A stretch of 64,000 bases of DNA from Gammaproteobacteria bacterium (lineage in GTDB: Bacteria; Pseudomonadota; Gammaproteobacteria; Magnimaribacterales; TMED112), in the NCBI GenBank assembly GCA_002716745.1, contig PBBW01000005.1, forward strand, positions 184,151-248,150, given 5' to 3'. The position numbers were made by a program, and so were the translations under genes. A model generated the notes under the pieces. The model was not told the origin of the DNA. It did no database searches and saw only the letters and a program-made list of their open reading frames with translations. This document shows, piece after piece, positions 2,765-56,655 of this stretch. How positions within the stretch are numbered: position 1 is the stretch's first letter; the number at the start of each line of letters is the position of its first letter.

Positions 2765-3603
2765 ATTGAATCTTTGAAGGCCTTTGAGAAATCAGAGAAT
2801 TTAAAATTAAACCCAGATTCTAAAAGCTTTTTTGGTTCAACATTTTGACCCTCCAATAATAGTTCAGATGCATTTCCAAATAATGTTTTATAGAAAACTT
2901 CAGGAAGATGTAGATAATTAGGCCTGTGCAAAACTCTCGCTATCATCTCAGACATTTCATGATTTGTTACAGGATTTGGTGAAACAAGGTTTACTGGACC
3001 AAAAATTTTCCTATTGATAATGAATTCCATACTATCAATTACATCCTCGATATGTATCCAAGATAATATTTGTTCTCCAGAACCAATATTTCCCCCAAGA
3101 AAATTATTAAATTGAAGAAAAAGTGGTATTACAAAATTTGATTTCGATCCAATAACTGGACCAATTCTCAAAAGAGAATAGTTTTTATTTGTAGAAAAAT
3201 TAATTGACGATTCCCACTTATGTACTAGCTTCGAAGAAAAATTTGCACTCATTTTTATCACATCATCTTCTGAGTAGATCTTTGTTTTTGAAGGGGGATA
3301 ATAGCTTATAGCTGATGCTTGTACATAATGAGAAACATTAAATTTCTCTGCAGCCTCCAGTAACTCTTTTGAATAAAAATATCTACTTTGTTGAAGTTTG
3401 GCTTTTCTGGATTTAGTCCATCTATTTGGAAAAATAGTCTCCCCTGCCAAGTTAATGATTATATCGCAATCTTCAAGCTCGTTAATATCGTATGTATTTT
3501 TCGGCGACCTAGTTAAAATCTTAATCTGATACTTGTCTTTAAATTTTTTCTGAAATGAACTTCCTATATAACCAGAGCCACCAGCTATAACTATTTTTTT
3601 CAA
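2761..3603 (-). CDS. TIGR01777/YfcH-like NAD-dependent epimerase family protein (SDR39U1-type)
   Basis: Rossmann motif 'IAGGSGYIGS'. Also 'INLAGE..RWT', 'GSGEQILSWIHIEDV', 'GPVNLVSPNPVTN' and the DUF1731-like tail 'LHRP...LLEGQNVEPKKLLESGFNFKF'. Collinear with E. coli YfcH as I recall it. Confidence 0.75.
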   Translation of the reverse strand: MKKIVIAGGSGYIGSSFQKKFKDKYQIKILTRSPKNTYDINELEDCDIIINLAGETIFPNRWTKSRKAKLQQSRYFYSKELLEAAEKFNVSHYVQASAISYYPPSKTKIYSEDDVIKMSANFSSKLVHKWESSINFSTNKNYSLLRIGPVIGSKSNFVIPLFLQFNNFLGGNIGSGEQILSWIHIEDVIDSMEFIINRKIFGPVNLVSPNPVTNHEMSEMIARVLHRPNYLHLPEVFYKTLFGNASELLLEGQNVEPKKLLESGFNFKFSDFSKAFKDSI

Positions 3604-40883: not shown

Positions 40884-41147
40884 ATGTCCAAATATTTAGA
40901 ATTAGTAGAAATATCAGATGGGGTAATAGTTTTAAGACGATCAGATACAAAAGAAGCACCATTAGTAAAAATTGAATTTTCAAAAGAAGTTAAAAACTTA
41001 TTAAATGGAATGGAATTTGACGTTGCAAAAGAGATGATAAAATCTGGAATCGAAACTTTAAATTCAGATATTGATGTTGAGGGGCTTGATGAAGAACTCG
41101 CAGAACAATTGCTTGAGAAAGAAAGCCCAAACAGAGTTGTTCACTAG
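40884..41147 (+). CDS. Hypothetical small acidic protein (87 aa)
   Basis: ORF only, with no recognisable family. Its 3' end overlaps lexA convergently by 4 nt. Confidence 0.35.
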   Translation: MSKYLELVEISDGVIVLRRSDTKEAPLVKIEFSKEVKNLLNGMEFDVAKEMIKSGIETLNSDIDVEGLDEELAEQLLEKESPNRVVH

Positions 41148-41734
41148 TTTACATTTTCTCTTACAATGCCCACAGCGATTCCTTCAATGATAAAATTCAT
41201 AGATTCATCAATCAAAATGTCATTAAAAGATTTATTTTCAGCAATTAGATGAACTTTATTTCCAATTTTCTTAAATCTTTTTAAAGTTACTTCTTCATCA
41301 ATCCTTGCTACAACTATCTGTCCAGTTTCTGGTTGAAAGCTTTTCTTGACCCCTACCAAGTCATTCTCTAAGATTCCAGCATCGACCATACTTGCACCTT
41401 TAACTCTAAGGAAATAATCAACATGCTTATTTAGAGGGTTAGGAATATTTTTTTCAACATTTTCAATAGCTGTTATTGGCATACCTGCCGCAACAGATCC
41501 TACTAAGGGTACGCCAGTTAGATCTTCAACTAACCTTATTCCTCTAGAACTTCCTGGAACCTTTTCAATCACACCCTTTTTAACTAAGGCTTTAATGTGT
41601 GATTCAGCTGCATTTACAGATTTAAAATTTAAGGTTCTAGCAATTTCTGCTCTTGTGGGCGGGTAGCCATTCAGAGATAAATGGTTTTTAATAACATCAA
41701 AAACTTTTATTTGTTGACTTGTAAGGTTTAACAT
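41144..41734 (-). CDS. lexA: LexA repressor
   Basis: Starting at the internal Met, 'MLNLTSQQIKVFDVIKNHLSLNGYPPTRAEIA' aligns with the E. coli LexA N-terminus. Cleavage site 'VAAG', catalytic 'GASM' (Ser) and 'TLKRF' (Lys) are all present. The 21 codons upstream in the longest ORF translate the AT-rich promoter. Confidence 0.9.
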   Translation of the reverse strand: MLNLTSQQIKVFDVIKNHLSLNGYPPTRAEIARTLNFKSVNAAESHIKALVKKGVIEKVPGSSRGIRLVEDLTGVPLVGSVAAGMPITAIENVEKNIPNPLNKHVDYFLRVKGASMVDAGILENDLVGVKKSFQPETGQIVVARIDEEVTLKRFKKIGNKVHLIAENKSFNDILIDESMNFIIEGIAVGIVRENVN

Positions 41735-41753
41735 ACTGTAATTATATACAGTA
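41734..41753. promoter_or_regulatory. LexA (SOS) box between lexA and the divergent 5'-nucleotidase-like gene
   Basis: TACTGTAATTATATACAGTA is a palindromic CTGT-N8-ACAG with TA-rich spacer. Its last base is the A of the lexA ATG (minus strand). Confidence 0.85.
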
Positions 41754-47478: not shown

Positions 47479-47866
47479 AAACCTTCAGAGCAGTTATGAC
47501 ATACAGTTGCTTTTGATAGACCCCTCACTTTTCTTTTATAGATATTTTGATATTGAAGTTTCAAACGTTGAGATTTCAGTAATTCTAGGGTTATTTTTTC
47601 TATTTATTATCCAGTTGAAAATTAAGCATAATAATCAAAAGTTTTCTAAGAGCCAAAAACAAGAAATACCGTCTTCTTTGAAGCTTGATGAAAAGAACGA
47701 AATTAGTTCAGATCCAGTCACTCAAAAAATTGATTTAGCAATTGCTTATATGAATATGGGAAGCATAAGAAAATCAAAACTACTTTTAGGAAAACTAAAG
47801 AAATTAAAACTTACAAAAAAACAAATAAAACGAATAGACTTTATTCTGACAGATTTGAATAAATGA
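47459..47866 (+). CDS. Miniature FimV-like protein (one transmembrane segment plus FimV C-terminal motif)
   Basis: 'IDLAIAYMNMGSIRKSKLLLGKL...LTKKQIKRIDFILTDL' resembles the FimV C-terminal domain. The position directly upstream of truA matches fimV-truA synteny in Pseudomonas-like genomes. Confidence 0.45.
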   Translation: MLKESLKNLQSSYDIQLLLIDPSLFFYRYFDIEVSNVEISVILGLFFLFIIQLKIKHNNQKFSKSQKQEIPSSLKLDEKNEISSDPVTQKIDLAIAYMNMGSIRKSKLLLGKLKKLKLTKKQIKRIDFILTDLNK

Positions 47867-48648
47867 TAAGGTATTTTGTTCAGCTGGAATACAAAGGAAC
47901 AAATTATTCTGGATTTCAGAAACAAAAGAATACAAGAAATACTGTGCAAGCTAAGCTAAATAAAGCATTAAGTGCTGTTGCTAATCACAGAGTTCTTACT
48001 GTTTGTGCAGGCAGAACTGATTCGGGAGTGCACGCTACAAATCAAATTGTACATTTTGATACAAACTCTAAAAGAACATTAAAGTCTTGGATAAATGGGA
48101 CAAATAGATATTTACCAGATGATATTTCAATTAAAGGTGTATATAAAGTCGAAAATAAACTTCATGCAAGGTTTGATGCAACATCAAGGACATATAAATA
48201 TCTTATAAGAAGGAGTGAACAAAAAATTGGACTTTTATCGGATAGCTGCTTATGGATAAGAAAAGAATTAAATATTAACTTAATGAACAAAGCATGCATT
48301 CATCTTCTAGGGGAGAAAGACTTTACTTCATTTAGAGCTTCGGGTTGTCAAGCAGAATCAGCAGTGAGGTCTATCTATGAAGCTTATTTAAAGCAAAAAG
48401 GACCGTTTATTATATTCCATATTAGAGCAAATGCATTCCTACTAAATATGATAAGAATAATAGTTGGAACATTGATACAAGTAGGGACAAAAGAAATATC
48501 AGTACCACAGTTCAAGAGAATTATTCAATCAAAGAAAAGATCATTGGCTGGCAAAACAGTCGAACCAAAAGGATTATATTTCTATGGACCGGAGTATAAT
48601 ACTTTTCAATACGAAATAAATGAGTGTTTTATAGATGAATTGGATTAA
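47863..48648 (+). CDS. truA: tRNA pseudouridine(38-40) synthase
   Basis: 'YKGTNYSGFQ.Q', the catalytic 'AGRTDSGVHA' and 'FLLNMIR'. Confidence 0.9.
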   Translation: MIRYFVQLEYKGTNYSGFQKQKNTRNTVQAKLNKALSAVANHRVLTVCAGRTDSGVHATNQIVHFDTNSKRTLKSWINGTNRYLPDDISIKGVYKVENKLHARFDATSRTYKYLIRRSEQKIGLLSDSCLWIRKELNINLMNKACIHLLGEKDFTSFRASGCQAESAVRSIYEAYLKQKGPFIIFHIRANAFLLNMIRIIVGTLIQVGTKEISVPQFKRIIQSKKRSLAGKTVEPKGLYFYGPEYNTFQYEINECFIDELD

Positions 48649-54498: not shown

Positions 54499-54957
54499 AT
54501 GAGTAATAATTTTCTTATCAAAACGCCATGTATTGGTATCTGTTCGACTACCTATGGTGATGAAATTTGTAGAGGATGTAAGAGGTTTTCTCATGAGGTT
54601 ACTTCATGGATCAAATATTCTGACGAAGAAAAAGACAATGTTAATAGAAGATTGCAATCATTTAAAAAACTTATTCTCTCTGAAAAGTTCTTAATCTCTG
54701 ACAAGAACCTCTTAAAAAAATCTCTCGATGAAGCTAAAATCATGTATAACGAAAAGCTTGAACCAATTTGTTGGCTTTTTGATCTTCTTAGAGCTGTATC
54801 TCAAGACTCTCTTGACCTTAGCTCCTTCGGCATTAAGGTAAAAGAATCTTATTCTGAAAATACTCTATCAGATCTTAAGGATCTTATTAATAAAGAATTT
54901 TTTGAACTTTCTTCAGCTCATTATCAACGATATATAAAAAACTTGAACATCATTTAG
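54499..54957 (+). CDS. DUF1289 domain protein with extended C-terminus
   Basis: 'PCIGICSTTYGDEICRGCKRFSHEVTSW' matches the DUF1289 Cys pattern. Confidence 0.55.
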   Translation: MSNNFLIKTPCIGICSTTYGDEICRGCKRFSHEVTSWIKYSDEEKDNVNRRLQSFKKLILSEKFLISDKNLLKKSLDEAKIMYNEKLEPICWLFDLLRAVSQDSLDLSSFGIKVKESYSENTLSDLKDLINKEFFELSSAHYQRYIKNLNII

Positions 54958-56212
54958 TCAAAGGAATTTCTTCTATTTTTGTGGTATATCTTTTGGACTT
55001 AATATGCCTCTTCATTTTCCATGTATTTCTATAACCTTGATTGCCAAAAAAAAGATATGAAATTTCTCTAATATTTATGTAGTCGACTGTTCTCATTAAG
55101 TTTTCTGACTCTTTGCTATCGAATGATTTGCCAAAAAGAGTCATTTGGTATCCAAGCTTTTCAGTGAAATTACTTAAAAGTATTCCCGCTTTTGAATACT
55201 CAAAACCTTCTCTATAGATTTTTTGTAAAATATTGTTAGCAGTTTTTATAATTATTCTTGAATCACTAGTTGCGTGCGCTATTTCCATGAAGTTTGAAGA
55301 GTAAATCTGGTTAATCTTTTTGTTAAACGGGTTGGAGCGTATGAATACTGTTATCAACCTACATTTTTGTCCTTCAAACCTAAGTTTCTCTGCAGCCCTT
55401 CCAGCGTGGAAGCTAACTGCTTCACGCAATACCTCTCTGGATTTTATAGACTTTCCAAAACTTCTACTAACCATAATTTGTTTTTTAGGCTCTGATAAAT
55501 TATTTGTTTCAATACATGGTTGGCCTCTTAACTCTCTTATTGTTCTTTCAAGTAAAACATTAAAATTTGAACCCATTAACCTTGGTTCAGCTTTACTTAA
55601 TTGGAGAGCATTTCTTATGCCTATGCTATTTAATTTATCTGTCATCTTCTTACCAATACCCCATATTTTTTCTATCTGTACTGATTCTAAGAAGTGACAA
55701 ATCATTTTTTTATCTTCAAGAATAACGGCACCATCGAACCTGGCATCTTCTTTTGCAACCCTATTGGCAAGTTTTGCCAAAGTTCTAGTTGGAGCTATTC
55801 CTATACTGACAGGGATCCCAACCCAATCTCTAATTCTATTTTTACAATCAAATGCAAATTGAACTAAATCAATATTATTCTTATATGAGTGCAGATTTAA
55901 GAAGGCTTCATCTATGCTGTATATGTCAATTTCTGGACATAGCTCTGTCAGTATATTCATTACTCTATTTGATATATCTGCGTAAAGTTCATAATTTGAA
56001 GAAAAAACAATTCCTCCATTATCTAAATAATTTTTCTTCACTTGATACCAAGGTTGCCCCATAGAAAGACCCATTTTTTTTGCTTCCGGTGATCTTGCTA
56101 TAACACAGCCATCATTATTGCTTAATACTATGACAGGATGATTTTTAAGATCTGGTCTAAACATCTTCTCACATGAAGCATAGAAACTATTGCAGTCAAC
56201 CAGTGCATACAT
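54950..56212 (-). CDS. umuC: DNA polymerase V catalytic subunit (Y-family)
   Basis: 'MYALVDCNSFYASCEKMFRPDL...PVIVLSNNDGCVIARS', 'FSSNYELYADISNRVM', 'YSIDEAF', 'VLERTIRELRG' and the C-terminal 'WKMKR...S.RYTT'. Collinear with E. coli UmuC. Confidence 0.9.
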   Translation of the reverse strand: MYALVDCNSFYASCEKMFRPDLKNHPVIVLSNNDGCVIARSPEAKKMGLSMGQPWYQVKKNYLDNGGIVFSSNYELYADISNRVMNILTELCPEIDIYSIDEAFLNLHSYKNNIDLVQFAFDCKNRIRDWVGIPVSIGIAPTRTLAKLANRVAKEDARFDGAVILEDKKMICHFLESVQIEKIWGIGKKMTDKLNSIGIRNALQLSKAEPRLMGSNFNVLLERTIRELRGQPCIETNNLSEPKKQIMVSRSFGKSIKSREVLREAVSFHAGRAAEKLRFEGQKCRLITVFIRSNPFNKKINQIYSSNFMEIAHATSDSRIIIKTANNILQKIYREGFEYSKAGILLSNFTEKLGYQMTLFGKSFDSKESENLMRTVDYINIREISYLFFGNQGYRNTWKMKRHIKSKRYTTKIEEIPLTK

Positions 56213-56613
56213 CAGTAAATATTGATAGAAGAAGTGACAGTTCCCAGGACCTCAAAATCTGTTATTTTATCTATATCTAGAAGCTTATTCTTATTGCAGT
56301 CCGTACTTAAAGTTTTTCTTTCACCCATAAGAATTTTTCTACATATAAATTCTCCATCAATTGAAGCAACTATAATGCTATTATTTTTTGGCTTTACGCT
56401 CCGATCTATTACTAGTATGGCATTGTCACTTATGCCAGAATAAACCATTTCATTACCTTTAAAGCGCATCAAAAAGGTAGAGCTAGATCTCTTAATTAGA
56501 AGGTCATTTATGTTGATTGGATTCTCAATATAATCATTTGCAGGACTAGGGAAGCCTGAATGTTTTTGATTTTTATAGAGAAAGGTATCCTTAATCTCAC
56601 TTTTAAGATCCAT
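56212..56613 (-). CDS. umuD: UmuD-like S24 family protein with a non-canonical active site
   Basis: 'SGFPSPANDYIE' and 'DGEFICRKI' align gap-free with E. coli UmuD. The GDSM nucleophile motif reads 'GNEM'. Its stop shares one base with the umuC ATG. Confidence 0.8.
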   Translation of the reverse strand: MDLKSEIKDTFLYKNQKHSGFPSPANDYIENPININDLLIKRSSSTFLMRFKGNEMVYSGISDNAILVIDRSVKPKNNSIIVASIDGEFICRKILMGERKTLSTDCNKNKLLDIDKITDFEVLGTVTSSINIY

Positions 56614-56620
56614 AATAAAA

Positions 56621-56640
56621 TACTGTATATATATACAGTA
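56621..56640. promoter_or_regulatory. LexA (SOS) box upstream of umuDC
   Basis: TACTGTATATATATACAGTA is identical to the idealised E. coli-type consensus TACTG(TA)5CAGTA. It lies 7 nt upstream of the umuD ATG. Confidence 0.9.
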
Positions 56641-56655
56641 GTTTATATCAAATGC

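Follow-up and report, generated by a model that had tools for sequence, protein, structure and literature searches.

A conserved UmuD of SAR86 without the Ser-Lys dyad: a probable natural UmuD' mimic that is not cleaved

In textbook accounts, RecA*-stimulated self-cleavage of UmuD serves as the final safety catch of DNA polymerase V (Pol V), the most mutagenic polymerase of bacteria, and the umuDC locus described here raises the question of how this polymerase is controlled when its UmuD lacks the residues with which it would cut itself. The locus is located in a stretch of 64,000 nucleotides (nt) of a gammaproteobacterial genome (assembly GCA_002716745.1, contig PBBW01000005.1, positions 184,151 to 248,150 of the forward strand), which was analysed as a whole and is called the window below. 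Its relatives are found in SAR86, which is among the most abundant bacterial groups of the sunlit ocean and keeps umuDC without the cleavage catch but with all else retained. An earlier reading of the letters alone (the sequence-only reading) had proposed that the UmuD homologue in the window cannot undergo Ser-Lys self-cleavage and that Pol V activation must differ, for example through an uncleaved, constitutively competent subunit. The inference was supported by our analysis and strengthened by further changes at the general base (Arg92), at the Thr95 column and on the substrate side. The uncleaved subunit is the best-supported model, with engineered precedents in UmuD 3A and UmuD 18.

Identification of umuD and replacement of both dyad residues

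The gene and the two codons at the dyad columns are as follows.
56212..56613, minus strand: umuD homologue, 133 amino acids (aa), S24 fold without the Ser-Lys dyad (open reading frame (ORF) list, Pfam, NCBIfam and PDB alignment)
56449..56451, minus strand: Glu55 codon GAA, at the column of the Ser60 nucleophile (alignment, codon check)
56338..56340, minus strand: Arg92 codon AGA, at the column of the Lys97 general base (alignment, codon check)

The umuD ORF matched PF00717 (Peptidase_S24) in Pfam with 57.5 bits (E 1.3e-15, cut-off 23.3), and its NCBIfam score for PRK10276 ('Pol V autoproteolytic subunit') was 109.2 bits, borderline below the cut-off of 110. Among solved structures, E. coli UmuD (8gmt_B) was aligned by phmmer without gaps over residues 10-97 (E 1.5e-18), and further matches were 1umu_A, 1i4v_A and 1ay9_A. 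The AlphaFold2 (AF2) model had a core of high predicted local distance difference test score (pLDDT >90, about residues 40-133), for which the top Foldseek matches were UmuD' (1ay9, target-normalised template modelling (TM) score 0.87) and UmuD on the RecA filament (8gmt_A, 0.92, root-mean-square deviation 1.4 A). The column assignment is secure because the gap-free alignment is joined by the AF2/Foldseek fold match. Pfam, phmmer and Foldseek thus upheld the proposal that the ORF is a UmuD homologue with Glu at the Ser60 column.

In the gap-free phmmer alignment, G-D-S60-M of E. coli UmuD corresponds to G-N-E55-M of the window protein. The codon check confirmed that Glu55 is encoded by GAA, from which no Ser codon can be reached by one substitution. 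A proper S24 alignment, named in the sequence-only reading as the check on its columns, places no serine at the nucleophile position, and no displaced serine for this position was found in the gap-free alignment to E. coli UmuD. The nearest serine, Ser59, was considered as a nucleophile and rejected, as it sits on E. coli column 64. This column is ordinarily Ala or Ser (A83 and S9 in a comparison set of 113 single-domain Ser/Lys relatives, called canonical UmuDs below), so Ser59 is a family-typical small residue and not a nucleophile.

The claim that the Lys partner is retained was wrong. The Lys in 'CRKI' falls on Lys98, and it is Arg92 that falls on Lys97. The structure 8gmt_B is a K97A mutant, and its 'FTVAKL' is paired with 'FICRKI' of the window, which puts position 97 on Arg92. 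Since the Lys97 column holds Arg92 and the Ser60 column holds Glu55, both dyad residues have been replaced. By homology to Ser60-Lys97, the two new residues are expected to lie close to each other. In the E. coli references for the column mapping, UmuD residues 15-102 agree with the PDB sequences, and the UmuC sequence was used for column labels only.

Conservation of the dyad-less gene in SAR86

A homologue search of 5.8 billion clustered proteins gave 210 matches, and the dyad was surveyed on 120 homologues. The clade was defined to include every homologue down to about 60% identity, about 94 clusters, and its members come from SAR86 metagenome-assembled genomes (MAGs), single-cell genomes and many independent metagenomes, with 13 species-representative genomes. 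The source names and these genomes place the window in the SAR86 cluster of marine Gammaproteobacteria, and we read the locus as a chromosomal umuDC operon. Orthologues, which the sequence-only reading had proposed to survey, lack Ser at the nucleophile column in all of the about 94 clusters: the residue is Glu in 74, Gly in 14, Asp in 5 and Val in one, whereas Ser is found in all 113 canonical UmuDs. The Lys97 column is likewise split without exception, with Arg in 94/94 clade clusters and Lys in 113/113 canonical proteins. The Arg92 codons across species include AGA, AGG, CGA, CGC and CGT, and because both Arg codon families are used, Arg itself is under selection at this position. At the Thr95 column, the window protein has Ile (I90) and the clade has L, F, I or V, and Thr is found in 66% of the canonical proteins.

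Position 55 is less strictly held. Of the 94 clusters, 93 have an acidic residue at position 54 or 55. Neighbour-joining recovered the clade as monophyletic, with a long stem, and placed Glu55 as ancestral, with Asp arising twice and Gly once. A whole sub-clade, comprising 14 clusters, carries Gly. Replacement of the side chain at position 55 is therefore tolerated, which weighs against a new catalytic role of Glu.

The umuD gene of the clade is functional and not decaying, and it is under strong purifying selection. The pairwise ratio of nonsynonymous to synonymous substitution rates (dN/dS) is 0.03-0.09 for umuD and 0.03-0.08 for umuC, the length of the umuD ORF is fixed at 133-134 aa, and the gene order lpxH-umuD-umuC-DUF1289-acnB is identical in distant clade members. 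The GC content of the window is 30-36%. These data leave practically no room for a sequencing or assembly error or a decaying pseudogene as the origin of the unusual sequence, and both were rejected: the dyad state is shared by about 94 clusters, drawn from MAGs, single-cell genomes and independent metagenomes, the ORF length and the low dN/dS speak against decay, and neither the SOS box nor the one-base umuC overlap has been lost. MAG binning is not the cause of the dyad loss either, because several single-cell genomes carry the same state.

N-terminal arm and former cleavage site

The substrate side of the cleavage reaction is represented by four features.
56557..56613, minus strand: N-terminal arm, residues 1-19, retained (predicted disordered in the monomer model)
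56557..56577, minus strand: proximal arm, residues 13-19, Y-K-N-Q-K-H-S, basic, which replaces the canonical hydrophobic cleavage-site region
56554..56559, minus strand: Ser19-Gly20, the former scissile dipeptide (alignment)
56539..56556, minus strand: GFPSPA, residues 20-25, invariant in the clade and corresponding to the UmuD' N-terminus

The pLDDT of residues 1-20 in the AF2 monomer model is below 50. Throughout the clade the arm has 19-20 aa, whereas the canonical median is 28, and its proximal part has the clade consensus H-K-K/N-L/Q-K-H-S. This part is conserved as well as the core (mean entropy 0.60 for residues 11-19 and 0.64 for the core), whereas residues 1-10 vary freely (1.43). The net charge of the proximal eight arm residues is +2.6 in the clade and +0.05 in the canonical set; the p-values of the charge and arm-length contrasts are inflated, as the clade members are related.

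The cleavage dipeptide had been read as Ser-Gly, and the alignment agrees, placing it at Ser19-Gly20. P1 is Ser in 91/91 clade members, compared with Ala in 99, Cys in 7 and Ser in 2 of the 113 canonical proteins, and P1' is Gly in 89/91. The canonical cleavage-site region approximates to [L/F][Y/F]xxxVxA↓G in the 113 relatives, and most of its determinants are changed in the clade. P3 (K17) is Lys in 72/72 clade members, where the canonical proteins have V74, I13, A13 and L4 (97% V/I/A/L) and not one Lys. The L17 column, hydrophobic in about 97% of canonical UmuDs, has S39, P29 and L4 in the clade, and the F18 column (P7), aromatic in 92% of them, is His in 70/72.

The surface that meets RecA* has changed in part. 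With the contact residues taken from the cryo-electron microscopy structure of UmuD with RecA* (PMC9926225), an acidic residue is found at the D91 column in 27% of clade proteins vs 62% of the canonical set, and at the E93 column in 52% vs 82%; the residues of the hydrophobic pocket persist. To judge from these columns, the clade has relaxed the acidic patch with which UmuD docks on RecA*.

As neither the nucleophile nor the general base is present and the substrate determinants of canonical UmuDs are missing too, Ser-Lys self-cleavage is effectively excluded, and the SAR86 UmuD is almost certainly a pseudo-protease for which RecA*-stimulated cleavage of this kind would be impossible. Peptidase families in general are known to include homologues without peptidase activity.

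The UmuC partner and SOS control

The partner gene and the regulatory elements in the window are listed below.
54950..56212, minus strand: umuC, 420 aa (NF002955, 474 bits vs cut-off 431)
54953..54973, minus strand: UmuC C-terminal tail EEIPLTK, a strand that by homology would dock on the UmuD cleft
56621..56640, strand not applicable: umuD SOS box TACTGTATATATATACAGTA (CTGT-N8-ACAG match)
56622..56651, minus strand: promoter-like site with -35 TTGATA, 18-nt spacer and -10 TACAGT (consensus match only)
41144..41734, minus strand: lexA, canonical, with VAAG, GASM and TLKRF (sequence)
41734..41753, strand not applicable: lexA SOS box TACTGTATATAATTACAGTA, overlapping the lexA ATG (CTGT-N8-ACAG match)

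The stop of umuD and the start of umuC share one base (TGATG), an overlap kept in 10 of the 11 relatives that could be scored. UmuC was said to keep its catalytic motifs, and it does: D6, Y11 and SIDEAF are present, and the NF002955 score is above the cut-off. Clade-wide, the residues D6, Y11 (steric gate) and D101/E102 are kept, as are the clamp motif QMxLF, the RecA-NT motif LMxT(V/I)DxIN and the C-terminal RYTT...K. This selection on the polymerase chemistry of UmuC argues that lesion bypass, and not only a checkpoint, is a selected function.

When the UmuC tails were compared across lineages, no clear difference was found. UmuD residue 88 (equivalent to E93) is Ser in the P0049-type proteins (loci L001 and L021), in which UmuC ends in Ser (...PEVS), and it is E, Q or N elsewhere, where UmuC ends in K or R; this is a single informative evolutionary event overall. 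The pairing agrees with the salt bridge between E93 and K422 in the published Pol V model, although one event is not statistically usable. At its other border, umuC converges on the DUF1289 gene (54499-54957, plus strand), and the 3' ends of the two genes share 8 nt (54950-54957 in the window, 5657-5664 in L001), an overlap that distant clade members also keep.

A perfect SOS box had been reported ahead of the operon, and the box TACTGTATATATATACAGTA was found there; we take it to equal the E. coli consensus palindrome exactly. The window has three CTGT-N8-ACAG sites where chance would give 0.47, and two of them are directly ahead of lexA and umuD. The box lies 25 nt upstream of the umuD ATG in the window, and 22-26 nt upstream in all 15 clade loci examined (15/15). 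The predicted -10 hexamer is inside the umuD SOS box, with the ATG about 9 nt further downstream. The lexA gene was confirmed from its sequence to be canonical, with VAAG, GASM and the Lys in TLKRF. By the conserved predicted box and this lexA gene, umuDC is predicted to be under SOS (LexA) control.

At both lexA (41732-41753) and umuD (56611-56640), the SOS box ends 0-9 nt from the ATG and no Shine-Dalgarno sequence is visible. Because the box is so near the ATG in these two genes and lacks a Shine-Dalgarno sequence next to it, leaderless or near-leaderless SOS transcripts are suggested for this genome. The third match, CTGTTGCTAATCACAG at 47975-47990, falls inside the ORF 47863-48648 and is most likely a chance match rather than an SOS box. 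This ORF (...GRTDSGVHA...) presumably encodes the tRNA pseudouridine synthase TruA.

Proposed activation of Pol V without cleavage

We consider it probable that the SAR86 protein is a natural uncleaved UmuD' mimic and that Pol V is controlled by LexA and RecA instead of proteolysis. The 19-residue arm would no longer dock stably on the globular domain, and the full-length protein would act like UmuD' from its synthesis on, with GFPSPA free to engage UmuC; in the Pol V model, the N-terminal GFPSPA segment of UmuD' inserts into UmuC (PMC11791011). The former catalytic cleft would still take the UmuC C-terminal strand, and Arg92 would supply the positive charge for the terminal carboxylate. In the same in-silico model, the UmuC C-terminal carboxylate binds S36, T71 and K73 of UmuD', and the side chain pairs with E69 (PMC11791011). 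With an offset of 24 residues these are S60, T95, K97 and E93 of full-length UmuD, all four identities matching. This suggests that the catalytic cleft doubles as the receptor of the UmuC tail and that general-base chemistry alone was lost. The Lys97 column would then be held as Arg, and not drift, because the cleft must bind the UmuC carboxylate; Arg is also found at this column in 17 of 26 other dyad-less UmuDs. More speculatively, the conserved basic extension before GFPSPA may be positioned close to DNA in the UmuC cleft.

In this view, two layers of control would be left for Pol V, very tight LexA repression, with the SOS box over the -10 element, and a RecA subunit held through the RecA-NT motif of UmuC, and the third layer, proteolytic licensing of UmuD, would have been dropped. 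The strong conservation of the dyad-less gene suggests that proteolytic activation of UmuD is dispensable. Two engineered E. coli proteins give the precedent. UmuD 3A (T14A/L17A/F18A) is full-length and non-cleavable with undocked arms and was called a UmuD' mimic, and UmuD 18 (delta 1-17) is non-cleavable, keeps low mutagenesis and promotes survival of ultraviolet (UV) irradiation (PMC5342242). Since both partly or largely mimic UmuD' without being cleaved, it appears to be the release of the arm that matters rather than the cut.

Several points weigh against the uncleaved mimic. E. coli cells with the non-cleavable S60A form of UmuD lose most of their UV mutagenesis and become more sensitive to UV (PMC3901139), and UmuD 18 is only weakly mutagenic (PMC5342242), so that an uncleaved UmuD is not active by default expectation. 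The window UmuD itself, unlike most of the clade, has Leu12 and Tyr13 at the L17/F18 columns at which the arm docks. Ser19-Gly20 is essentially invariant, for which there is no obvious need if the bond is never cut. The ideas of the tail in the cleft and of the arm near DNA are derived from an in-silico model of E. coli Pol V, and an AF2 monomer is blind to docking of the arm in trans.

Other explanations of the dyad-less UmuD

If UmuD were instead locked permanently in its uncleaved state, it could serve with UmuC as a checkpoint or fidelity factor that restrains mutagenic synthesis. The retained arm with its conserved proximal half would suit such a role, as would Leu12 and Tyr13 of the window protein. 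However, the UV hypersensitivity caused by UmuD 8 S60A is independent of UmuC catalysis (umuC104 background, PMC5342242), so a checkpoint needs no polymerase chemistry, whereas in SAR86 the UmuC catalytic residues, the steric gate, the clamp and the RecA-NT motif are all under strong purifying selection. The hydrophobic determinants of the arms-down state are also gone (P3 Val throughout, L17/F18 in most of the clade), and we regard this role as unlikely, though it is the most serious competitor of the uncleaved mimic. The near-invariance of Ser19 and Gly20 would fit a cut of the bond in trans by another protease, which could be LexA, a second canonical UmuD, or trimming of the Lon/ClpXP type. 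UmuD cleavage is naturally intermolecular (PMC9926225), an active-site-dead UmuD can be cut by its partner (PMC5342242), and a canonical LexA is present in the window. Against this, P3 is an invariant Lys, a residue seen in none of the canonical proteins, P1 Ser occurs in only 2/113 of them, and the RecA*-docking acidic patch is relaxed. No second umuD was found within the 64-kb window, and the closest canonical UmuDs come from other genomes of 23-26% GC with other synteny and are not SAR86 paralogues. Licensing in trans is thus an improbable explanation.

It is also conceivable that the dyad was replaced by new chemistry, in which Glu55 and Arg92 take over from Ser-Lys, e.g. through a Glu-activated water, and cut Ser19-Gly20. 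The acidic residue at 54 or 55 in 93/94 clusters and the essentially invariant Arg92, Ser19 and Gly20 would fit this idea. However, position 55 tolerates Asp (twice), Gly (the 14-cluster sub-clade) and Val, other dyad-less lineages carry Ala or Cys at the Ser60 column, and the substrate determinants P3 and P7 are lost. Arg is a poor general base, and we know of no S24 precedent for Glu/Arg catalysis. We give this chemistry hardly any credence. A slightly wider proposal, that Ser19-Gly20 is still cut either by some non-Ser-Lys chemistry, such as a Glu55-activated water for which Arg92 is the electrostatic partner, or by a dedicated external protease recognising HK(K/N)xKHS↓G, is very improbable as well; if it were true, Pol V licensing would persist in SAR86 as a mechanistically new autoprocessing of the S24 fold.

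Dyad loss in other lineages and related S24 proteins

An exhaustive HMMER search through 1.84 billion cluster representatives yielded 4782 matches at E <=0.001, among which the SAR86 clade had only one full-length 50%-identity representative. Among the best 150 of the 4782 matches, a sample biased towards the query, 125 domains are Ser/Lys and a minority differ; ten domains keep Ser and have Arg for Lys, which is consistent with Lys to Arg being the first step in dyad loss. Three dyad-less UmuDs outside SAR86 were found next to a polymerase gene.
L023 3001-3429: Gracilimonas dyad-less UmuD, GNEM/Arg, directly upstream of full-length umuC
L026 3001-3480: Balneola dyad-less UmuD, GNAM/Arg, directly upstream of full-length umuC
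L024 3001-3405: dyad-less UmuD of candidate division WWE3 (Candidate Phyla Radiation, CPR), GNAM/Arg, directly upstream of full-length umuC

These proteins resemble the SAR86 UmuD in being single-domain S24 proteins upstream of umuC, with Arg at the Lys97 column, Glu or Ala at the Ser60 column and the arm kept. They differ in that they belong to two other phyla, are only 35-40% identical, do not branch in the tree as sisters of the SAR86 clade, have no basic HKxxKHS segment and have different upstream operators. By drift, P1 has become Thr or Lys in these proteins, and the arm is 8 to 27 aa long. In a neighbour-joining tree, a crude one from about 110 columns and BLOSUM distances, the dyad-less UmuDs are scattered among canonical ones. 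A single old 'Arg-type' family of all dyad-less UmuDs was rejected on this placement, and because of the scatter the losses look independent; the dyad has apparently been lost independently in Balneolales and in CPR WWE3. A long AT-rich palindrome, TGCACATATATTTATATATGTGCA, precedes the Balneola umuD (L026, about 2935-3000), and a related element, ACACATATATTGTACATATAT, is present upstream of the Gracilimonas umuD (L023, about 2940-3000). The two elements may be operators of an SOS regulator that is not of the E. coli type.

Two further groups of S24 proteins were observed. Tandem double-S24 UmuD-like proteins of 220-285 aa (P0124, P0127-P0130, P0134 and about 25 others; e.g. L029 2501-3247) have an N-terminal domain that is mostly dyad-less (GDAF/R, DNHL/R, GEAM/R) and a second domain that is usually Ser/Lys, and they look like covalent half-dead UmuD dimers. 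The closest canonical UmuDs (P0099-P0120; Ser/Lys, Cys-Ala-Gly) are about 41-44% identical and come from marine genomes still richer in AT than that of the window. For example, L007 has 25.7% GC, and L022, labelled Alphaproteobacteria, has 22.9%; they have other synteny and no E. coli-type SOS box upstream. Either horizontal transfer among AT-rich plankton or a convergence in composition could explain their closeness.

Earlier descriptions and implications

No published description of a natural dyad-less UmuD, or of SOS or Pol V in SAR86, was found in open-access full text. The UmuD-related passages of two surveys of Y-family polymerases make no mention of a dyad-less UmuD (PMC6511836, PMC12926913), and a search on LexA K156R in open-access full text was likewise uninformative. 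The public name of three SAR86 members (P0032, P0034 and P0035) is 'translesion error-prone DNA polymerase V autoproteolytic subunit', in which the term 'autoproteolytic subunit' is probably wrong for the dyad-less clade proteins.

The SAR86 locus is a natural experiment on the purpose of UmuD cleavage, as it sets the release of the arm against proteolysis as such. The invariant Arg, read with the Pol V model, suggests that the 'catalytic' cleft also has a conserved second task, to receive the UmuC C-terminus. The locus also bears on the control of mutagenesis in streamlined, UV-exposed marine bacteria.

Comparison with known systems

The E. coli UmuD has the same fold as the window protein (TM 0.87-0.92) with gap-free homology from GFPSPA on, and the overlapping umuD-umuC operon, the type of SOS box and the UmuC motifs are shared. 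In SAR86, Ser60 has become Glu, Lys97 has become Arg, Thr95 is hydrophobic and P3 Val is Lys; the E. coli protein has Cys24-Gly25 after a hydrophobic arm of 24 aa, whereas the SAR86 protein has Ser19-Gly20 after a basic arm of 19 aa. The engineered S60A, K97A, UmuD 3A and UmuD 18 resemble the SAR86 UmuD in being uncleavable with the arm still attached, and the L17 and F18 columns mutated in UmuD 3A are naturally replaced by Ser or Pro and by His in most of the SAR86 clade. However, these are laboratory mutants, whereas the SAR86 state is natural and ancient, affects both the enzyme and the substrate side and is under purifying selection.

HumD of phage P1 is a UmuD-family protein that needs no activating cleavage and is LexA-regulated, and its record states that it 'functionally complements E. 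coli UmuD''. It begins with M-GFPSPA without an arm and keeps the Ser and Lys dyad, which is the reverse of the SAR86 UmuD, and no umuC is adjacent to it. HumD-type membership of the window protein was rejected, as it scored 69.7 bits with NF051876, for which the cut-off is 120, and has the 19-aa arm. A repressor of the UmuDAb type was likewise rejected, since the 133 aa hold an S24 domain only, with a disordered arm of 19 aa and no dyad. The passages on YolD/YqjX of Bacillus in the two polymerase surveys describe a non-protease small subunit of UmuC-like polymerases with an SH3-like beta core and no self-cleavage, whose N-terminal arm is proposed to reach into the polymerase; it belongs to an unrelated sequence family and is predicted to be monomeric (PMC6511836, PMC12926913), whereas the SAR86 protein is a bona fide S24/UmuD protein.

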